A stretch of 64,000 nucleotides of DNA from contig JAFYUV010000017.1 in the NCBI GenBank assembly GCA_017549425.1, positions 6,384-70,383 on the forward strand. Direction: 5' to 3'. The notes beneath the pieces are model-generated. The model had not been told where the DNA came from and did no database searches. It worked only from the letters and a program-made list of their open reading frames with translations. A program made the position numbers and the translations under genes. Shown piece by piece: positions 9,453-20,024 of this stretch (position 1 is the stretch's first letter; the number at the start of each line of letters is the position of its first letter). This stretch comes from Clostridia bacterium (lineage in GTDB: Bacteria > Bacillota > Clostridia > TANB77 > CAG-465).

Positions 9453-10976
9453 ATGTCAGTTAGTTTAAATAAAGAGGAGTTAACTTTAAATAAATTTATA
9501 TCCAGAGATAAATTTTCTACATGGATAGAGCAGGATGTATTAGTTCCTGATATAAAACCGGATGTGATGAAAATTATTAGAGTTGAGGCTATACCGTTTA
9601 TAGAAAATAGTGAGATTACAGACGGAACTATAAAAGTAAGTGGAACTATTACTTATTATATTCTATATCGTTCTATGGATGGTGGTGCGATAACAGGAAT
9701 AACAATGGAATATCCATTTGTCCAAAATATTAATACATCATTAGCAAAATCTAATATGCAGTTCGACGTAGATGCTGTAGCAAAAAACACAATATATTCG
9801 ATACCTAATGAAAGGAAAATTTTATTAAAAACAGAGATTCTATTTAAGTTTTCCGTTATGGACACTGTTGTTGTCCCTATTGCAATAGGCTTTGATGTTG
9901 GAAAAGATATAGAATATAAGACCAAAGAAGAGTTGTTCAATAATGTAATTTCTACAAAAAAAGAAACCATAGCAGTAAATGAAGAAGTGATAATACCAGA
10001 TGATATAGGGCCAATTAATGATATAATAAAAGTGGGTACAACTATAAAAAATACGGATTACAAGGTGAGTTATAATAAGATACTTGTAAAGGGAGAATTA
10101 CAATTACAGATACTTTATCTTAAAGGAGAGCAAACTAACGCTGTTGGAACATATAATTTGACTATCCCTTTTGCAGGGATGATAGAATTTGATAATATAG
10201 CAGACAACTATAAGTTTGATATTAAGTATTCTCTTCAAAATTTACAAATAATATTAAATGGGGAGGAAAATGGGACTTTAACTGTTGATGGAGCTATATT
10301 AGCCAGAGGAGTAATGTACGAAGAAAGAAGTATAATACATATAGCAGATTTTTATAGTACCAATAAAGATTTGATTTATGATTATGCAGACATAGCTGTT
10401 ATAAAAAATAAAACAAAGTTAGATAAAGATATTACAATAAAAGAAAGAATTGGGCAATTAGAAGAAGGTAGTCAAATTTTACAATATCAAATAGATACAA
10501 ACTCGCTAATAACTATGGTTTCAGGCGGCAATTTATACATTAGTGGTAATGTGAAAATTCCAGTAGTATATCAAAATTCTATTACAGGAATGGTAGATTC
10601 TAAAACATTTGAAGTGCCGGTTGAGAATTCTTTTACAATAGGAAAAGACATAGGGGAGTCTAATGTAGTTGTTAGTTTAGAAGTTTTTAAAGATGATATT
10701 TATTTATCTTCTGGTAATGTCGAAGCAAATATTATTCTAAGGGCTAACATAGAAATCGAAAATGTAGGTAATATTACTACTATTCAAGAGGTTTCTGAAC
10801 AAGAAATAGATGTGAATAATTTTGAGAGTATGTATATATATATAGTAAAAAAAGGAGATACTTTATGGGATATCGCTAAAAAATATAAAACTACAGTATC
10901 AAAAATTGCTAATGTTAATAATATAAATGACGAAAGCAATATCCAGATAGGACAAAAGCTATTACTAATTAGGTAA
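9453..10976 (+). CDS. SpoVID/SipL-like sporulation protein (DUF3794-type repeats + C-terminal LysM)
   Basis: 507 aa; C-terminal [29 protein letters not shown]...[10 protein letters not shown] is a LysM domain; architecture matches clostridial SipL. Confidence 0.65.
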
Positions 10977-11643: not shown

Positions 11644-11709
11644 TGGTTGACTTTACAAATGCCAGCAAAAATGATATAATATTAACCACTAAAAGTTTTG
11701 GAGGAGCAT

Positions 11710-12183
11710 ATGATTATATCTACTGAACGGTTAATTTTAAGACCTTTTTGTATAGAAGATTTGGATGATTTTTTTAATATACTTCAAGAGGATAAAATAG
11801 AAAAATATTTACCAGGAATTTATTCTAATAACAAGGAAGAAATTAGAGAAAATATAGAAATATATCAAAATGCGGATTTTTCGAATGATTTTTATTATGC
11901 GATTATAGATAAACAAACTAATAAAATTATTGGAGCTATTGTGTGCGTAAGAACTATAGGGAACACATATGATATGTCGTATTTTATTTCTAAATTTCAA
12001 AGAGATAAAGGGTATATGTTTGAAGCGCTAGAGGCCTTTTGTCGGAGTATTAAAAAGACAATTGTAAGGGCTATTGTTCACTTTTTCGTAAAAAAAGACA
12101 ATAAAGAATCAATAAGACTACTGGAAAAATTAAGAGCTAAGTTGGTATGCGTTCATAAAATGAGTTTAGAGTTTATTATTTAG
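11710..12183 (+). CDS. GNAT family N-acetyltransferase (RimL-like)
   Basis: TERLILRPFCIEDLDDF N-terminus typical of RimJ/RimL GNATs; ATG 11710 after GGAGGAG. Confidence 0.7.
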   Translation: MIISTERLILRPFCIEDLDDFFNILQEDKIEKYLPGIYSNNKEEIRENIEIYQNADFSNDFYYAIIDKQTNKIIGAIVCVRTIGNTYDMSYFISKFQRDKGYMFEALEAFCRSIKKTIVRAIVHFFVKKDNKESIRLLEKLRAKLVCVHKMSLEFII

Positions 12184-12192
12184 GAGGTAATT

Positions 12193-12678
12193 ATGATTAT
12201 TATATCTGAAAGAACTGTGCTCAGACCTTTTTCTTTGAATGATATGGATGCTCTTTATCGGATGTCAATGGAAGAGGATATTAAAAAGTACACAGATATT
12301 CTTGTAACAGACAAAAGAAGTTTGAAAAAAAAGATCAATGTATATAAGTCTTCTGACTTTGTTAATGAGTTCTGCTTTGTCATAGTTGAGAAAGCCTCTA
12401 AAGAGGTAATTGGCTGTTTCTGTGGAATTGCAATTGTTCCTAAAATAATAGAGGTTATTTGCTGCTTGACAAAAGATAAAAGAGGGCAAGGGTTTATGCA
12501 AGAGGCAATCATTGCGTTTTGCAAACAAGTAGATAGATGTTTTGTTTTGAAATTTACGGTTTCAAACAAGAATAAAAGTGCAGAAAGATTCGTTAAAAAA
12601 TTAGGTGCTAAATATGACTTTAGCATTGGTGAAAACAAAGTGTTTTTATTATACAATAATTTAAAAGAACTGGAGTAA
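12193..12678 (+). CDS. GNAT family N-acetyltransferase (second copy)
   Basis: SERTVLRPFSLNDMDALY...; paralogous to preceding gene. Confidence 0.6.
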   Translation: MIIISERTVLRPFSLNDMDALYRMSMEEDIKKYTDILVTDKRSLKKKINVYKSSDFVNEFCFVIVEKASKEVIGCFCGIAIVPKIIEVICCLTKDKRGQGFMQEAIIAFCKQVDRCFVLKFTVSNKNKSAERFVKKLGAKYDFSIGENKVFLLYNNLKELE

Positions 12679-12700: not shown

Positions 12701-14032
12701 TTAATCATTAAAATCTTTATATATATGATTAAATTTGCCGCTTACCTTATTTGCTTGTGGTGGTTCGTTGGATAAATGTATTTCGATATCTGAGATGTTT
12801 TTACTTTTTAGAAAATCTAACAAATCTTCTTTTGCGTGTTCGAAAGCGGATTTTGTATTTTCAGAAATAAGTCTTAATTCTAATATATTATATGATTTTT
12901 GAATTAATTGAAATCTTGTAATTTCTTTTATTTCTTCTAAAATTTTATAAAAAGACATTGGTGCAATTAAAACATTATTTTCAAATTCTAATATATTATC
13001 TGTTCTACCTTCAATTTCAAGCCAAAGGGAATTTTTACCACATTTGCATTTATCGTTGTGAACGATGATGCGGTCGTTTAATTCATATCTTATAATTGGT
13101 TGAATATAGTTAGATAAATTAGTAATTAAAACTTTATCTGAAAGTTGTCCATAAGGAACGGGGTTGTTGTTTTTATCTACTGGTTCTACTATTACCCAAT
13201 CTTCGTTTATATGTAAGTGTTTCATTGGACATTCACAGGCTATTTCACCAGCTTCAGTACATGAATAATGTGTTTGTACGTAGCAATTAAATTTATCTGT
13301 TAATTTTTTCCTAATTTCATCTGTTAATAGTTCTCCGCCAGTAATTACTACATCTGGCTTTATAACTAATTCTTCAAAATTAGCTAAAAGGGCAAGGTTT
13401 GAAGGATATCCGCTTAGCATAGAAGGCTTGAAATTATTTAATTCTTGTATAATAAGCTCTTCTTTAGAATTAACGTCAATAGTTATTTTGTTTTTTTTAG
13501 TAGGCATTCTAAGCTGCAGGTATCTTGACATACCACAAGCAAGATAAAAACCGTAATTAGCAAACACTCCTGCGGTTCTTTTCCCATTATTCATAAATTT
13601 TTTAAAATCTTCTTTTCTGGCAAAAGTTCTAAAAGCAGCAACTGCTGATGCCACATCAATATTTTGCTTGTCATATAATATTATTGCTGGATTCCCTGTA
13701 GAACCAGAAGTTTTGAATATCAAATACTTTCCTTCTATCATACGGCCAACGTTATCTATATTACTTGTAAAATTCTCAATTTTTTGCATGTTAATATTTT
13801 TATCTGTAATCCATGTATCAAAATTTTTCATCATTTCTATTTTATTTGTTACTGGCAAATCTTGCAAAGAAAAATTATCTTTGATATTTGTATATAACTT
13901 GTTAAAATAAGGACTATTGCTTTTTGTAAATTTTACAAGCTTTTTTAGTCTTTTGTATTGTAATTTACTTAAGCTTTCTCTACTTATATTATTTGCTTCG
14001 TATGTTTTGAACATAGCACCAATTAAACTCAT
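12701..14032 (-). CDS. phenylacetate-CoA ligase (PaaK/CapK)-like adenylate-forming enzyme
   Basis: TSGSTGNP AMP-binding motif, 443 aa, overall PaaK-family layout. Confidence 0.65.
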   Translation of the reverse strand: MSLIGAMFKTYEANNISRESLSKLQYKRLKKLVKFTKSNSPYFNKLYTNIKDNFSLQDLPVTNKIEMMKNFDTWITDKNINMQKIENFTSNIDNVGRMIEGKYLIFKTSGSTGNPAIILYDKQNIDVASAVAAFRTFARKEDFKKFMNNGKRTAGVFANYGFYLACGMSRYLQLRMPTKKNKITIDVNSKEELIIQELNNFKPSMLSGYPSNLALLANFEELVIKPDVVITGGELLTDEIRKKLTDKFNCYVQTHYSCTEAGEIACECPMKHLHINEDWVIVEPVDKNNNPVPYGQLSDKVLITNLSNYIQPIIRYELNDRIIVHNDKCKCGKNSLWLEIEGRTDNILEFENNVLIAPMSFYKILEEIKEITRFQLIQKSYNILELRLISENTKSAFEHAKEDLLDFLKSKNISDIEIHLSNEPPQANKVSGKFNHIYKDFND

Positions 14033-14094
14033 TTAAAATCACCTTTTATTTTTATTTGTTTGATTGTAATTATATCACAATAATAATTTAAGTC

Positions 14095-14122
14095 AAAAAA
14101 AGAATCCGTATAAACGGATTCT
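14095..14122 (-). terminator. terminator of rplM-rpsI operon
   Basis: minus-strand hairpin GAATCCGT-TTAT-ACGGATTC followed by T-run. Confidence 0.7.
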
Positions 14123-14136
14123 TGTATGTATAAATA

Positions 14137-14550
14137 TTAACGTTTGCTGAATTGTGGCGCTTTTCTTGCCTTCTTAAGACCATATTTTCTTCTTTCTTTA
14201 ACACGTGAATCACGAGTAAGAAGACCAGCTCTTTTAACTAAAGTTTTAACATCGCCATCTGTAGTAGCTAAAGCTTTAGCAATACCGTGAGCTACAGCAC
14301 CAGCTTGGGCTGAAAATCCACCGCCATGAACAGTAGCTATTACGTCATATTTTTCTATTGTGTTAGCTACAGCAAAAGGTCTTGTAACAACAGCTTTTAA
14401 TGTTTCTAAAGAATAGAATTCATCAAGAGGTTTTTCGTTAATTGTTATTTTACCTGTTCCTGGAGTAATTCTTACTCTAGCTATAGCAGATTTTCTTTTA
14501 CCAGTTGCATATATAAATTTTTGTGAATTTGCAATTTCTTTTTTTGCCAT
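14137..14550 (-). CDS. rpsI: 30S ribosomal protein S9
   Basis: [20 protein letters not shown]... and C-terminal KKAPQFSKR are S9 hallmarks. Confidence 0.92.
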
Positions 14551-14566
14551 TTTACATTACCTCCTA

Positions 14567-15001
14567 TTAAAATTCCCATATTTCTGGCTTTTGAGCTTGT
14601 TGTTCATGCTCAGCACCAGTATATACTCTTAATTTAGTAAGCATTGCTCTACCTAGACTGTTTTTAGGTAGCATTCCTTTAACTGCTATAGTAACAGCTC
14701 TTGTAGAATGTTTGCTCATCATATCTTTGGCTTTAACTTCTTTTAATCCTCCAATATATCCAGAGAAAGAAGTATAAACTTTTTTATTTAATTTATCTCC
14801 TGTTAATATAACCTTATCTGAGTTAAGGATAATAACATGATCACCACAATCAATATGTGTTGAATAAGTTGGTTTGTGTTTTCCTTTTAATAGTTTTGCG
14901 GCTTCAGCGGCAACTCTTCCTAAAGGTTTACCAGCACCATCTATTATGTACCATTTTTTTTGTATTTCGCTTGCTTTTGCGCTATAAGTCTTATTATTCA
15001 T
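14567..15001 (-). CDS. rplM: 50S ribosomal protein L13
   Basis: KKWYIIDGAGKPLGRVAAEAAKLLKGKHKPTYSTHIDCGDHVIILN matches L13. Confidence 0.92.
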   Translation of the reverse strand: MNNKTYSAKASEIQKKWYIIDGAGKPLGRVAAEAAKLLKGKHKPTYSTHIDCGDHVIILNSDKVILTGDKLNKKVYTSFSGYIGGLKEVKAKDMMSKHSTRAVTIAVKGMLPKNSLGRAMLTKLRVYTGAEHEQQAQKPEIWEF

Positions 15002-15122
15002 TTTAGATGTCTCCTCCTAAAAATTAATTATATCTTGTATACTAATAAAAATTACCGAAAAATATTAATATGCAAAACATATGCTAATATATTTTACAAT
15101 ATTTTTGGAAATATGTCAACTA

Positions 15123-15148
15123 AAAATTATAAACATTAAAAAATTATT
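15123..15148. repeat. 26-bp direct repeat (left copy) AAAATTATAAACATTAAAAAATTATT, putative attL core
   Basis: Identical 26-mer recurs at 23122-23147; read directly from sequence. Confidence 0.85.
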
Positions 15149-15158
15149 TGTTGAGTTA

Positions 15159-15220
15159 CAATTGATGTGAAACAAGAAGTAATATTTTTAACTGTTAATA
15201 TTACTTTGTTTCGCATCATT
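15159..15220. promoter_or_regulatory. imperfect inverted repeats (CAATTGATGTGAAACAA / TTGTTTCGCATCATT) flanking a 9-bp-stem hairpin; candidate phage ori/packaging or operator region
   Basis: 15159-15175 and 15206-15220 are inverted copies; hairpin AGTAATATT-TTTAACTGTT-AATATTACT at 15178-15205; a third copy TTGTTTCACATCATTG is at 23096-23111. Confidence 0.5.
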
Positions 15221-15246
15221 TTTTATTTTTTTTAGGAGGAAATATT

Positions 15247-15543
15247 ATGGAAAAAGAAAAAAATGTTACTAAAGAAGAAGATTATAAAGATTTACCGTCT
15301 TTTAAAATGCGTAGACTAGATTGTTTAAAGCAGCAAACAAAAAACGGTGAAGAATATTATATGTTTAATGGTATAGTTCGTTTTGGAGATAAAGCACAGC
15401 TATTAACATTTTTTACTAAAGACGAAGATTTATATACCGAAGTTTTAGCTATTCCAGTAAATCATGATTTTAATTTATATTATGAATTATATCTTGATTA
15501 TCAAAACAATTGGAAAGTAAAACCTGTTGCCGTTTCACTTTAA
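15247..15543 (+). CDS. hypothetical phage protein (possible ssDNA-binding gV analogue)
   Basis: 98-aa ORF with RBS AGGAGGA, first gene inside the element; function unsupported. Confidence 0.35.
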   Translation: MEKEKNVTKEEDYKDLPSFKMRRLDCLKQQTKNGEEYYMFNGIVRFGDKAQLLTFFTKDEDLYTEVLAIPVNHDFNLYYELYLDYQNNWKVKPVAVSL

Positions 15544-15623
15544 AAAAATCTCGCCCAAGACTTAATAACATTGGGCGAGTGTCCCAAAAATGAGAATTTT
15601 ATATTTCAAAGAGGTTATAAAAA

Positions 15624-16674
15624 ATGATAGACACAGTTAAGATTTATACAAAGATTAGCGAGTGTTTATATAATGAAATAGACAAGCTGTCTGATACAGT
15701 TGCAAAGTATAACGTAGGACAAGACATTATTTATTATAAGTTGTCTAGTGGTTCTGTGAAAGGTTCATATGACAGTTCTCTACATTTTCGACCTTCTCAA
15801 GCAAAGTATGGTATGGGTTATTGGTTAGAGCTTGAACGGAAGTTATCATAAATTATGCTATGGTTATAACTCACATAATGGCTTTTATGATATAGAAAAT
15901 GTTTGTCAAGGTATGATAGATTTGTTCTCTAATGCATACAATTTGGAATTACCAAGTTTTGAAAATTGGTATGTACACAGAATAGATATATCTTTTGTAT
16001 ATGATTTAGAAAATCAAGAAAACGTTTCTAATTATATAAACAATTGTAGATATTTAGTTTACCCAAGAAGAAAAACTCAATATTTTTTAAATGAATGTGT
16101 TTATTTTGCTGGTAGTCGTTCTACCTTAAAAATATACAATAAGTTTCTAGAATTTAAAAAGCATGATTATAAAAAATTAAATAAATTTGATAATTTTGAT
16201 ATAGATAATTATTGTGAACAAATAAAAGGGTTTGTTAGATTTGAGTGTGAGTTACGAAAGAAAAAGTTATATGAAATTTTAGGAGAAGATAAAAACAAAG
16301 TTTTAGATATTGATATAGAAAAGTTAAATAATTATGTTGTTGGTGATTTTATGAAGTTGTTTAAAGTTAATGATAATAATATATGTATTGTAAGAAGTCA
16401 AAATGATGTTAAAAATTTATTATATAGTAGATATAAAGATTGTAAAGCTAGAAGATTATTCGGATTTTATTTATGTTGTATAAATGACGGTATTAATAAT
16501 GTAAAGGAACAATTTTCAAGTTCTTCATTTTATAGAAACATTTTAGAATTAAAAGAATGTGGTATAGATTTTACACAACAAGCTTTTATAGTTGAGGAAA
16601 AGATTGAAACAAATGTTAAATTTGTAGATTTTATGCCTTTTGTAAACAATTGTAAATATCGTGAGGTAGTTTAA
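15624..16674 (+). pseudogene. rolling-circle replication initiator, Phage_CRI / filamentous phage gene II family (apparent +1 frameshift near 15835-15850)
   Basis: N-term MIDTVKIYTKI... and RIDISFVYDL block resemble Ff gpII; two overlapping ORFs (15624-15851 frame 0, 15832-16674 frame 1) together give about 350 aa. Confidence 0.6.
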
Positions 16675-16814
16675 TGGAAGAAGGATTATCAGGAATAATT
16701 GTTATATTATTTTGTATTGCTATTTTATTAATTTTTATAATTGGACAAATTGATGTTGGTCGAGAAAATGGTTTGAAGATATATAAGGAAGTAATTTATG
16801 TATATACTGAGTAA
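16674..16814 (+). CDS. small single-TM phage protein (46 aa)
   Basis: ATG overlaps rep stop (TAATG); MEEGLSGIIVILFCIAILLIFIIGQ...; typical inovirus minor-coat-sized ORF, not in track (<60 aa). Confidence 0.4.
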   Translation: MEEGLSGIIVILFCIAILLIFIIGQIDVGRENGLKIYKEVIYVYTE

Positions 16815-16976
16815 AACAAATGAAATTAAAAGATATAGATATATATCAAATTCTATTTATCCATTAAGTATTTGGATTAAAGCAAGACATTCTTTGCTTA
16901 TTACTCCGTTATTTTTATTTGTTAGTGAATTTGGTATAAGAAAAATGAGAGAGATTTTATCTAAAGGAGATAAATT

Positions 16977-17177
16977 ATGTTTGTAGAGATATTTTTTTGT
17001 GTAGTATTAATTTTTGTAGCTATTTGGTGTAATGAAGAAACGAAAAATACAAAAAAGAGAAATGAGATTTTAGAATTAGCTAAACAAGAAAAAGAATTAA
17101 ATTTAAATAGAGTAAAAGAAAGACAAAAATATGTAAATGTAATATTAAATTTTGAAAAGGAAGATAAAAATGGTTAA
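16977..17177 (+). CDS. small TM + charged-tail phage protein (66 aa)
   Basis: MFVEIFFCVVLIFVAIWCNEE... hydrophobic helix then K/E-rich tail. Confidence 0.35.
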   Translation: MFVEIFFCVVLIFVAIWCNEETKNTKKRNEILELAKQEKELNLNRVKERQKYVNVILNFEKEDKNG

Positions 17178-17415
17178 TTTAATTGTTTTAAATGATATAG
17201 ATGTTATTTTTAATCGCGCAGGTTTTAATCGATTTATGACTGCCGAAGGTTTCTTTTATTTAGAAGCCTCAACAGATTTAGCTGTATTTTTTAATACAAG
17301 TAATAAAACAGTTTTAGTTTATGATTATGAGACAATGGAAGCAAAACAATTTAATTCAAAAATATTGGATTTAATAGATTTTGTAATTATAATGTTAGGT
17401 TGGAGAAATGAATGA
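17152..17415 (+). CDS. hypothetical phage protein (87 aa)
   Basis: ORF in phage module; possible start at MVNLIVL. Confidence 0.3.
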   Translation: MKRKIKMVNLIVLNDIDVIFNRAGFNRFMTAEGFFYLEASTDLAVFFNTSNKTVLVYDYETMEAKQFNSKILDLIDFVIIMLGWRNE

Positions 17416-17594
17416 TAATAATATATTTATATTGTTTAATCAAAATGCCATATGCAATATGGCAAATGATAAACGTAATAAAAGAATTCAAGAGGGAATA
17501 TGAGAAAAGGCCATATGATTGGTCTAGAGAAAAATAAGAATGCTGACCCCCCTATAAATAGATTTAACAAAAGATAAAAAGGAGTAATAAACAA

Positions 17595-19011
17595 ATGATA
17601 AAATTTATTAAAAATAATTCTGTAAAATTTATATCTAGTATGTTTATAATGCTAACTATATTAATGGTTAGCACTTCTGTGTTTGCTTTTTCTTCTTTTG
17701 AAGTGGATGAATCTGGAATTGAAGGCTTTACCAAAGAAGGTATTAAAGAGTTTTTAGTGTCTGAGGGCTATTCTCAATACGCAAATGGTAATTATATTTT
17801 ATTTTCTACTTGTAATCAATTTGGAGCTCAAAGTCATACAGCTGTTGTAGTTAGAGAAGATTATGCTGACAAAATTTCATATATTAAGGAAAATGATACG
17901 TCTTCTAATTGTATGGTTTTTTATGATTCAAATAATAGTTTTCTTAAGCCTTATAAGATATCGATTTATTATTCTGACGGAGTTTATTCTTCAGCTTTTG
18001 GCGAAGGTTCTTCAGCTAATTTTTATATAAGTGATTTAACTTATTTCCATTATTCAGATTATGATATTTATAATAAATCTGGTGAGATAGTATATGATAC
18101 AGTATCACAAAAAGCAAAGAAAATAATATATGAAATAAATTATGCTGAGGACAAAAAAACAGCTACATTACATGCAGAGATAAAGAACACATCAGAAGGT
18201 GATAAATTATATTATTCTACTTTAGGCTTTTCTTTGACTGGTAAATTAATAAATCCAATAGAATTAAATCAATCACAATTGAGTATTATTAATTTATATA
18301 AAAACGATATTATATATTTACAAGCTTTTGATTTTTATCGGAGATCTTATAGATACAGTAGTTGTAGATGTTACTGAGTTAGATGTTTTTGATTCAAGTA
18401 ATTTTGATATTGAAATTCGTAGTGATGCTAATGGTGAAACTCGTGTTTATGGAACTTTATATGGTAATTATTATTTGTATTATGATATAGATTGTAAAGT
18501 ATTGGTTGAGTCTGATGTTCATGACGACCCTGATTTAGATTATATTTCTGTTAAATATGAAAATAGTTCTGTTAATGAATTGAATTCTTATTTTAGTTAT
18601 GTTAGTGGTTCAAAAATTTATTTTAATACTACTTCTTCTAATTCTTATTTCATTGAAGTTTTTTTTAGAATAACTAATAAATCAACTGGACAGGTTGTTT
18701 ATATTAAGTCTATTGATTTTAATTTTGGTAATTTAGGTCATGGATATAATGAAGAGCACATATATGAAGATGATGAAGCTGTTGAAAACGGTGATTTTAT
18801 TGTTGATGATGGTTCTTCTGATATTGACTTTTCTGGCATTGAAAATTGGAAAATTGAAGATTATTATGATTTAGTATCAGCTGATAATTTTGTTTGGAAA
18901 TTTTTTAAAGCTGTGCTTTTTGAATTACCTTCATGGATTACAACTCCTTTATATATTCTTATTTTTGGTGTAGTTATAATTACTCTTTATCGTTTTATTC
19001 GTGGAGCGTGA
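17595..19011 (+). pseudogene. pIII-like secreted adsorption/minor coat protein with C-terminal membrane anchor (apparent frameshift between 18283 and 18377)
   Basis: Signal peptide MIKFIKNNSVKFISSMFIMLTILMVSTSVFA; second ORF (18328-19011, TTG start) ends in TM anchor LPSWITTPLYILIFGVVIITLYRFIRGA; the two ORFs overlap in different frames. Confidence 0.45.
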
Positions 19012-19016
19012 TTTTT

Positions 19017-19403
19017 ATGTATATTGAATATGTTTTTAATTGGTTATATAAAATCATGTTGTTACCATTTCCTTTAGTTTTATCTAATGAAGTTTTTTAT
19101 TTAGTTACTATTCTTGATTTATTTATGTTTTCTGTGTATGTTGCTATTTTTATCATTTTAATTCGTTATATTTTAACTGATACGATTTCTTTTGAAATTG
19201 GTGGATATTCAATTAATTATAGTTCTAGTGCTTATTTGCCTTCTCATATTCTATCTAACAGAAATAAAAAAAGGGAAATTAAAGAAAGAATAAAAAAGGA
19301 AAGAACAAGAAAATTTAAAAATGAAAAACAACAAAGAGATTTAAAAGAAGCTAAAGTAAAAAATTTAATAAAAAGGAGATTAAATGATTATGGTTCCAAG
19401 TGA
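19017..19403 (+). CDS. pVI-like multi-TM minor coat protein candidate
   Basis: MYIEYVFNWLYKIMLLPFPLVL...three hydrophobic segments then KR-rich tail; ATG 19017 right after pIII-like stop. Confidence 0.35.
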   Translation: MYIEYVFNWLYKIMLLPFPLVLSNEVFYLVTILDLFMFSVYVAIFIILIRYILTDTISFEIGGYSINYSSSAYLPSHILSNRNKKREIKERIKKERTRKFKNEKQQRDLKEAKVKNLIKRRLNDYGSK

Positions 19404-19497
19404 GTTATTAGAAATTTTTATATACGTTAGTATTATTTCATCTATATTATTAATCTTAAAGACTGCATTTCAATTTTTTAAATGGTTCTTTAATTAG
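19384..19497 (+). CDS. small single-TM phage protein (37 aa)
   Basis: MIMVPSELLEIFIYVSIISSILLILKTAFQFFKWFFN; overlaps end of previous gene in another frame. Confidence 0.3.
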   Translation: MIMVPSELLEIFIYVSIISSILLILKTAFQFFKWFFN

Positions 19498-19562
19498 TGA
19501 GGTGATTTAGTTTGGATGTTTCAATTTATACTGAACAACCTTTTTTAGATGTTGGACAAATT

Positions 19563-19685
19563 ATGAAACAGTGGTTTGGTTCAACTTCTAGCAATGTTCC
19601 AGTAGATATATGTATTATATTTAGTTATTTATTATTATTTGTATTTGGTCTTAGCATATTAGGTTTGTTATTTCGTAGACGTTAA
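19563..19685 (+). CDS. small coat-like protein with C-terminal RRR (40 aa; alternative TTG start 19512)
   Basis: MKQWFGSTSSNVPVDICIIFSYLLLFVFGLSILGLLFRRR: TM helix plus basic DNA-binding-type C-terminus. Confidence 0.4.
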   Translation: MKQWFGSTSSNVPVDICIIFSYLLLFVFGLSILGLLFRRR

Positions 19686-19765
19686 TTAGTTATAATCCAG
19701 CTTCTAGTTGGTTTATATAAATTTCATTCGGATTCTGTTCTTGAATCCAGTTAGGAGGTTTTATC

Positions 19766-19948
19766 ATGGAAGGTGCAGCAACTTTAGTAAGTTCAATAAC
19801 TGAAGGCGTAACAACTTTATCAACTGGAATTTTCAATGTAGTAACTTCTGCATTTGAAAATACTAACATGTTGACAATGATTGGTATCGCAATTGCTTTC
19901 GGTCTTGTTGGTTATGGTCTTTCACTTATACCTAAATTAAGAGGGTAA
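19766..19948 (+). CDS. major coat protein (pVIII-like) candidate
   Basis: 60 aa, amphipathic N-part, TM MIGIAIAFGLVGYGLSLI, basic end PKLRG; RBS AGGAGG; followed by GC-rich hairpins. Confidence 0.5.
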   Translation: MEGAATLVSSITEGVTTLSTGIFNVVTSAFENTNMLTMIGIAIAFGLVGYGLSLIPKLRG

Positions 19949-19952
19949 TGGT

Positions 19953-20001
19953 TAGCGTTAGCTAACGCACGGCGAGGAAAAGGAGCGCAAGCTCCCTCCT
20001 C
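19953..20001 (+). terminator. pair of GC-rich hairpins after coat gene
   Basis: GCGTTAGCTAACGC palindrome and GCGAGGA-AAAGGAGCGCAAGCTCCC-TCCTCGC nested stem with GCAA loop; unusually GC-rich for this genome; no clear T-run. Confidence 0.45.
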
Positions 20002-20024
20002 GCTTGTGCATATAAGGAGTAATT

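Follow-up and report, generated by a model that had tools for sequence, protein, structure and literature searches.

A filamentous-type prophage of a Clostridia bacterium with the anatomy of an IS481-like transposon and duplications of about 25 bp at promoter edges

The DNA analysed here is a stretch of 64,000 nucleotides (the window) from a Clostridia bacterium (contig JAFYUV010000017.1 of assembly GCA_017549425.1, positions 6,384 to 70,383 of the forward strand), in which an apparent inovirus-like prophage of 7,974 bp lies at 15149-23122 between two copies of a direct repeat. It is highly probable that the whole prophage is built as a transposon and that the repeat is a 25-bp target-site duplication made by the element's own IS481-like DDE transposase. 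We conclude that a filamentous phage took over the ends and the enzyme of an IS481-like element, whose duplications measure about 25 bp and which prefers promoter edges, and thereby became a transposon. A preliminary description of the window had placed here the junctions of an integrated filamentous phage of the single-stranded DNA (ssDNA) type, which was borne out by a G2P-type Rep, a Zot/pI protein and the gene layout; it had also read the repeat as the core of attL and attR attachment sites, a proposal that did not survive comparison with related elements. These relatives were traced from homologues of the Rep and the transposase to their contigs, and are cited below by their L numbers.

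Flanking repeats and element ends

The 26-mer AAAATTATAAACATTAAAAAATTATT is present in two exact copies in the window, at 15123-15148 and 23122-23147. A search allowing three mismatches gave no third copy in the window, and 100 dinucleotide-preserving shuffles gave none either, in agreement with the two copies counted in the preliminary description. The inverted arms reported there, CAATTGATGTGAAACAA at 15159-15175 and TTGTTTCACATCATTG at 23096-23111, are likewise present, and were scored by a repeat search as one inverted pair of 29 nt that is 76% complementary. They are the inner parts of imperfect 27-bp terminal inverted repeats with TGT...ACA tips, TGTTGAGTTACAATTGATGTGAAACAA at the left end (15149-15175, plus strand) and TTGTTTCACATCATTGACAAGTGCACA at the right end (23096-23122, plus strand), which are complementary at 20 of 27 positions as counted on the printed sequences. 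The first 26 nt of the left repeat are identical to the left end of the stand-alone insertion sequence (IS) in L032-L041, and the repeat is near-identical in sibling phages; the right repeat is also kept in sibling phages and ISs. The preliminary description was right in that the arms look like functional element ends.

The tips are fixed as TGT...ACA by stand-alone IS contigs, several of which have TGT as their very first or ACA as their very last bases. Given these tips, the duplicated host segment is 25 bp and not 26 bp: the left copy, AAATTATAAACATTAAAAAATTATT, occupies 15124-15148 and the right copy 23123-23147, and the two are still identical at 25 of 25 positions. The 26th base of the repeat is the element's terminal A (23122), which matches the A of the left flank (15123) by chance. 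An empty window site with one copy of the 25-mer would accordingly read GTCAACTAA-AAATTATAAACATTAAAAAATTATT-ATTATTTTTTT. The left flank of the prophage is formed by the start of rplM-rpsI (minus strand, 14137-15001) and the right flank by an HD-domain gene (23184-24848); the window has a G+C content of about 28% and holds no tRNA gene.

The flanking repeats of related elements have the same length and other sequences. A sibling prophage in L011, with ends nearly identical to those in the window, lies at another site, between an unrelated 144-aa gene and murB, and is flanked by an exact 26-nt repeat, ATAAAATAGTTTTGAAGTGGTAAGGT (25 bp once the TGT tip is assigned), that is unrelated to the window repeat. 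The same termini, TGTTGAGTTACAATTGATGTGAAACA at the left and ...TTTCACATCATTTACAAAYGTACA at the right, are found on stand-alone ISs of 1.10-1.26 kb, which have long flanking repeats too; their transposases are 63-65% identical (63% in alignment). In a set of 16 distinct complete elements, namely 12 ISs (1,102-1,257 bp), one element of 2.39 kb and three phages of 7.4-8.5 kb, the flanking repeat measured 24-26 bp, most often 25, and no two sequences were alike; a repeat of 27 bp was seen once, in L027/L028. The preliminary description, which took the repeat for a conserved att core, had itself named different junctions in related genomes as evidence that would speak against it. Such junctions are found in the related phages and ISs, every insertion of which has another repeat of 24-27 bp, and a conserved core is thus contradicted.

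At one host site (L027, from 11173 onward), the right duplicated copy is 27 nt long in one sample and 26 nt long in L029-L031 (TAACTAAAT... versus AACTAAAT...), which reflects either independent insertions at one site or a 1-nt polymorphism. Two contigs have mixed flanks: L027 joins an L026-like left flank to an L028-like right flank, and L039 joins an L032-like left flank to an L040-like right flank, so that each is either an assembly chimera across repeated copies or the product of real recombination between copies. The element of 2.39 kb (L141, 727-3117; 2,391 bp) has the same repeats and a 25-bp duplication, and holds an unrelated 388-aa reverse-strand open reading frame (ORF) between the left repeat and the transposase gene, indicating that cargo is tolerated where the phage genome sits. 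L074 has the left-repeat motif twice on one strand (61-111), at a distance of 31 nt, which may represent a nested or abortive insertion.

Transposase and circular form

The element encodes an intact rve-family DDE transposase of 330 aa (21909-22901, plus strand) adjoining its right end, which we take as the putative integration enzyme; the statement of the preliminary description that there is no phage integrase was therefore mistaken. The protein matches PF00665 (rve, E=6e-16), HTH_32 and rve_3, and its best NCBIfam match is the IS481 model NF033577 (E=9e-52, 176.3 bits). The catalytic triad D157, D223 and E267 is invariant in the transposase alignment, as is N274, seven residues after E267, in 9 aligned sequences. 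Pfam and PHROG scans found no tyrosine or serine recombinase within the element. The IS30 family, suggested by the long duplications of IS1630 and by SpV1, was rejected after NCBIfam returned IS481, IS21, IS3 and IS630 models and no IS30 model.

The position of this gene and its association with the terminal repeats are shared by other phages. There is no IS-type left repeat upstream of 21909; the one left repeat present bounds the opposite end of the phage, at a distance of 6.7 kb, so the gene is not a self-contained IS. In three further phage lineages, Zot, a small reverse ORF, the transposase and the right end follow in the same order, and their transposases are 80% (L010/L011), 81% (L016-L025) and 89% (L026-L031) identical to that of the window in alignment. 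The small reverse ORF of the window encodes a 90-aa membrane protein (21361-21633, minus strand), and in the sibling phages, too, it precedes the transposase gene. L016-L019 have an identical transposase and a Rep of equal length (351 aa) with differing structural modules. The sister lineages L005-L008 (Rep 77% identical) and L009 (69%) have neither the transposase nor the end motifs. Since three lineages have both and these sister phages have neither, the ends and the transposase travel together. When genome contigs were scanned with the transposase, four loci matched at 56-58% identity (L012-L015). One of these, L012, from a high-G+C member of the Oscillospiraceae, has a transposase of 56% identity, a recognisable right end of ...CACATTATTGACAAACGCACA (at 10948-10971, GGTCTCACATTATTGACAAACGCACA) and, about 2 kb upstream, a weak homologue of Zot; a search over 10 kb gave neither a left end nor a flanking repeat.

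The free form of a sibling phage is represented by four circular assemblies from four samples, L021, L022 (7,042 bp, with a 141-nt terminal overlap), L023 and L024 (6,956 bp, with 55 nt), all of one 6,901-nt genome. At the circle junction, ...TTGACAAACGTTCA-T-TGTAGAGTTACAATTG..., the ends are abutted with a 1-nt spacer. L018 and L020 have the same junction with G as the spacer, which thus varies between samples, and the junctions of circles and tandem copy read in short ...ACGTTCA-[T or G]-TGTAGAG... The tandem prophage array in L018 (9454-9506) consists of a complete copy followed by the start of a second, with the G spacer between them. The circle and the integrated L018 copy (6,900 bp) share 99.97% identity. 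Integrated copies are flanked by the 25-mer TAACTTAAAATTTGCAGATTTTCGT, which occurs in no circular contig, even at four mismatches. The preliminary description had expected a circle of the form arm-core-arm; the sibling circles and the tandem junction are instead arm, one nucleotide, arm, with the flanking repeat missing. Because the flanking 25-mer is missing from these circles, the repeat is derived from the host and is not an att core; and because it is host-derived, of the same length and of another sequence at each site, it is best explained as a target-site duplication.

Judged by its tips, its 27-bp repeats, its DDE enzyme, and the abutted ends and variable 1-nt spacer of the sibling phage, the element matches the anatomy of a copy-out-paste-in IS, and the following route would account for it. 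The donor would be the double-stranded circular replicative form, with its ends abutted 1 nt apart as in the circle of such an IS. The transposase would bind both repeats and expose 3'-OH CA ends, which would be joined to phosphates of the target at positions about 25 bp apart on the two strands. Filling of the gaps would then duplicate 25 bp of host DNA, which would be the '26-bp direct repeat' of the preliminary description, and the repeat, being host-derived, would differ at each insertion. Landing would place an outward-facing, sigma-A-type promoter-like -35 box 3-5 nt past the duplicated segment. Duplications of about 5, 15 and 25 bp are known for IS481 relatives and the IS1202 group (PMC10045372; bioRxiv 10.1101/2022.12.17.520857); since such classes, stepped by roughly one helical turn, are documented, a length of about 25 bp is unusual but has precedent.

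Circularisation would in addition create a promoter into the replication genes, which integration would break. The right terminal repeat of the window contains an outward-facing TTGACA (23109-23114) and the left terminal repeat a -10-like TACAAT (15157-15162). The corresponding circle junction of the window phage is predicted to be ...GACAAGTGCACA-N-TGTTGAGTTACAATTG..., in which the abutted ends give TTGACA-17-TACAAT, matching the consensus at 11 of 12 positions; in the integrated copy, the hexamer upstream of TACAAT, as read from the sequence, is CATTAA. It is a reasonable inference that a junction promoter driving the first phage ORF and Rep forms only in the circle, and circle-forming ISs with junction promoters have been described (bioRxiv 10.1101/2022.12.17.520857), which offers a parallel to the proposed phage junction.

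Insertion beside promoter-like sites

A scan of metagenomes with the left-repeat pattern yielded at least 120 loci (L048-L167). Among the loci listed there were 123 left ends, 54 of which are followed by a transposase gene while 51 lie less than 500 nt from a contig end; a phage gene follows none of the 123. Downstream of the other 18 left ends, over 500 nt of sequence is available in each case but holds no transposase or phage gene; these ends may belong to non-autonomous derivatives or to elements with other cargo.

Insertion sites are not chosen at random, and the sequences outside the elements carry a positional promoter signal. In 119 unique left flanks, 14 of the 27 occurrences of GTCAA lie at just two of 76 positions, -35/-34 from the tip. 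When promoter-like sites were scored, an outward-facing -35 box 28-30 nt from the tip was found in 36 of the 119 left flanks at 9/12 or better, compared with 0-5 at other offsets; with both ends pooled, 47 of 143 flanks reached this score at offsets 28-30, compared with at most 4 elsewhere. The same offsets stood out for the hexamer TTGACA considered separately in the pooled set of 142 element flanks in L016-L167, in which 32 of the 142 unique outward flanks matched at 5/6 or better, against a mean of 1.19 per other offset. Of these 32 flanks, 84% also have a match of at least 5/6 to TATAAT 16-18 nt further on, compared with 9.7% at control positions. Because both hexamers are present at the right spacing, the targets are promoter-like sites and not a lone hexamer.

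The insertion in the window fits this family pattern. A host promoter-like site, TTGACA-17-TAAAAT (15091-15119, minus strand; 11/12 consensus match), faces rplM-rpsI, and its -35 box (TTGACA at 15119-15114) lies 4 nt outside the duplication, the distance being 3-5 nt beyond the duplicated segment family-wide. Since the duplicated 25 bp stay beside the -35 box, the region upstream of the rplM-rpsI site is preserved. The right terminal repeat contains ATTGACAA, which fits a transposase that reads TTGACA as its cue. On these sequence patterns, the cue for targeting would be either the transposase reading TTGACA or a promoter-bound polymerase. We tentatively consider, as a possibility that is somewhat less probable than its negation, that this IS481-like clade and the phages with its ends home to sites upstream of sigma-A promoters, such that integration would be an off state and circularisation an on state in which no dedicated repressor is needed. 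This proposal encompasses the -35 box 3-5 nt past the duplication of about 25 bp, the survival of the host promoter, and an early promoter that would exist only in the circle.

Phage genes, alternative explanations and known systems

Nearly all ORFs in the 8 kb between the repeats are on the plus strand. The first phage ORF (15247-15543, plus strand) encodes 98 aa, is kept in sibling phages (tblastn; 37-48% identity in L005-L007 and L009), and has no match in Pfam, PHROG or NCBIfam. It is followed by a rolling-circle initiator of the G2P/gene II type (15624-16674, plus strand; PF05144, PF05155, phrog_702, TIGR01629), which is broken by one extra nucleotide into ORFs of 75 aa (15624-15851) and 280 aa (15832-16674). 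The extra nucleotide lies in GAA-C-GGA, within window positions 15824-15851 and also within L026 3102-3129. Relatives of this Rep are single fused proteins of 345-351 aa. Next is a block of small, membrane-type ORFs (16798-19948, plus strand; ORF list), among them a 60-aa hydrophobic ORF at 19766-19948. The block is partly conserved in sibling phages; its small hydrophobic ORFs match no Pfam or PHROG family and no coat-protein family, and by position and size they are presumed to encode structural proteins, that is, coat and adsorption proteins. A Zot/pI-type morphogenesis ATPase, an inovirus hallmark, follows at 20025-20804 (plus strand; PF05707, E=9e-10; phrog_197, phrog_1675). Inovirus-like elements are expected to be about 5-15 kb in size with small membrane-anchored coat proteins, and the prophage has 7,974 bp and several short hydrophobic ORFs. 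Phages of this kind package circular ssDNA in filamentous virions, a point on which the circular assemblies of the sibling phage are the one line of evidence. The G2P-type Rep, Zot/pI ATPase and gene layout of the prophage identify it, as far as gene content can, as inovirus-like (Tubulavirales).

A long hairpin is predicted at the left end (about 15163-15218, plus strand; DNA fold of 15149-15235, -15.7 kcal/mol). The inner part of the left repeat makes up its 5' arm, and an inverted GATGTGAAACAA motif, the third copy of that motif, its 3' arm. The hairpin may be an ssDNA signal, for packaging or as a complementary-strand origin, or a second transposase-binding site. Because an equivalent sequence is present in sibling phages and was not seen in stand-alone IS left ends, a signal of the ssDNA phase appears more likely than a site for transposition. 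Among deposited phages, megablast gave no DNA match to the element, and the best protein matches were 44% identical for the transposase and 28% for Rep, none of them close. A Zot-guided scan of IMG/VR returned nothing, a Rep-guided scan one distant locus only, and a scan with the left-repeat pattern no match.

Beyond the prophage, rplM-rpsI and a gene of the AMP-binding type occupy the minus strand at 12701-15001 with a locally negative GC skew; the remainder of the window is plus-strand with positive skew. Such an orientation of rplM-rpsI is unusual for ribosomal protein genes. Upstream of the rplM block, 11698-12678 holds two adjoining 161-aa paralogous ORFs of the Acetyltransf_3 type, so labelled after the Pfam family listed for the same genes in L002.

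Several observations weigh against the interpretation of the prophage as a transposon with its own enzyme. The transposase scores below the curated IS481 cut-off (176 versus 224 bits for NF033577), and a duplication of 25 bp is outside the 2-15 bp, mostly 6, of IS481 proper (PMC10045372). No circle of the window's own phage was recovered, the circles coming from the sibling whose transposase is 81% identical, and circular assemblies are indistinguishable from tandem arrays. Look-ups of an empty site at the window locus with the exact HD and L13 proteins gave prophage-bearing contigs only; all 8 contigs encoding the identical L13 carry the prophage and are essentially one strain. The empty-site pattern for the sibling site of L026 likewise found no match in the metagenome collection. 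Finally, the Rep split could mean that this copy is replication-defective.

This last point, together with the presence of the prophage in every contig found for this host and the fact that no circle of this exact phage was found, is what could be expected of a dead remnant, which once transposed and no longer replicates or moves, its repeats being a scar. The same one-nucleotide Rep split is, however, kept in L026-L028, which are about 14-18% different in DNA (82-86% identical) and lie at at least two other sites, suggesting +1 frameshifting or two functional products rather than decay; its retention in diverged relatives at other sites argues that the split form is functional. The two duplicated copies are moreover still identical, and the transposase, Zot and both terminal repeats are intact. 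We therefore regard a dead remnant as unlikely, with perhaps a minor share of the probability.

The transposase could, alternatively, be a hitch-hiking IS inside a prophage that integrated by other means, its gene being unrelated to the outer repeats. Among the close homologues of the transposase, the great majority are multi-copy ISs that stand alone, and protein sequence alone cannot separate the two cases (Roux et al. 2019, PMC6813254). Against this, ISs have their left repeat about 100 bp upstream of the gene, where the window has none; three phage lineages, two of which have an identical transposase protein and differ in their structural genes, keep the gene in the same position together with the outer repeats; and the duplication brackets the entire phage. 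A hitch-hiking IS is thus very improbable.

Least probable, to the point that it can practically be dismissed, is the proposal that the 26-mer is an attL/attR core common to attP and attB, which a XerC/D-like host enzyme or Rep would recombine, the inverted arms either binding the recombinase or folding as ssDNA into a hairpin attP: the repeat is an exact one with no further copy in the window, the two terminal repeats can pair as single strands (-13.2 kcal/mol, DNA fold) and Xer integration of the CTXphi type is known (cited in PMC11209303), but there is no core between the arms in the sibling circle and tandem junctions, the flanking repeats share a constant length of about 25 bp and are unrelated in sequence, the same arms bound plain ISs, the element encodes its own DDE enzyme, and the cumulative GC skew has no turn at the site, which is therefore not a terminus or dif position. 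A dif/Xer site was ruled out by the differences between repeats from site to site and by this lack of a turn.

The suggested route by a host recombinase or Rep, which fails for the window element given its own enzyme and the repeat-free sibling circle, is plausible in its Xer form for the transposase-free sister phages, whose location at a conserved sequence beside a xer-like gene had also counted in favour of an att core. In L005 (9544-9563 and 15710-15729) and L009 (9525-9544 and 15301-15320), the 20-bp sequence ATTTCGCAAAATAGATATTT flanks phages that have no transposase or terminal repeats, and it is identical between two distinct hosts. The right copy precedes a xer-like tyrosine recombinase gene (316-319 aa) by about 350 bp, in a conserved tig-clpP-clpX neighbourhood. 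By these sequence features, integration of the sister phages looks like the Xer/dif type.

For the window element, the transposon reading can be set beside known systems, among which IS481 is the nearest family by sequence and the IS1202 subgroup the nearest by behaviour. Common to IS481 are a single-ORF rve DDE transposase of about 320-330 aa with one helix-turn-helix, stand-alone relatives of 1.1-1.26 kb (about 1-1.3 kb in IS481), TGT...ACA tips and the best hidden Markov model match. Besides the score and the duplication length (24-27 bp here), the element differs from IS481 in an invariant Asn at E+7, where Lys or Arg is said to be typical (bioRxiv 10.1101/2022.12.17.520857), and in carrying a whole phage. 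The IS1202 subgroup has very long duplications, of 27-28 bp (bioRxiv 10.1101/2022.12.17.520857) or 24-29 bp (PMC10045372), with the lower part of which the 24-27 bp found here overlap; it also has TGT-type repeats with a conserved inner block and occurs in Firmicutes and Tenericutes. Part of this family has been proposed to pass through a circle that carries a junction promoter (Siguier et al., bioRxiv 10.1101/2022.12.17.520857), and one subgroup targets a defined site at a fixed distance (bioRxiv 10.1101/2022.12.17.520857). However, IS1202 transposases are 400-500 aa long in ISs of 1.3-2 kb, compared with 320-334 aa and 1.10-1.26 kb here; the IS1202 subgroup has an insertion of about 30 aa, and Gln at E+7 where the present enzymes have Asn; and what is targeted here resembles a promoter, in contrast to a Xer site.

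The closest phage precedent is Vespertiliovirus (the Spiroplasma plectroviruses SpV1-C74 and SkV1CR23x), whose members are filamentous, have an ssDNA genome and carry a DDE transposase gene; transposition is regarded as their way of moving, and the packaged circle as its intermediate (PMC8295915). Their ORF3 transposase is 34-36% identical to that of the window over the catalytic core, covering only 36-41% of the protein (E=2e-11 to 2e-9). They lack a gene-II-type Rep (PMC8295915), whereas the window phage has both Rep and transposase, and their host is Spiroplasma, whereas that of the window phage is a walled Clostridia bacterium. The Neisseria Nf/MDA and Acinetobacter Af phages also integrate by their own transposase and not by an integrase or Xer (PMC11209303), but their enzymes are of the IS110-type DEDD class, with no terminal inverted repeats and no target duplication (PMC11209303). 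Phages of the CTXphi type are likewise filamentous, have no tyrosine or serine integrase, and form tandem arrays, as in L018; the window element differs from them in having its own DDE enzyme and no dif-like core, and the circle junction, as seen in the sibling phage, shares no sequence with the host site.

Transposase genes have turned up in surveys of inoviruses, which left undecided whether they were parasitic ISs or the phage's own integration machinery (PMC6813254). In this lineage the anatomy provides the answer, since the whole phage lies inside the terminal repeats and the duplication, and the ends of the free circle are abutted. For prophage annotation, a long exact terminal direct repeat alone is no evidence of an att core. 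The elements compared here also document a clade of IS481-like elements that have short transposases, make duplications of about 25 bp and strongly favour the upstream edge of promoter-like sites, a preference that is relevant to target selection by transposases and possibly to tools for targeted insertion.

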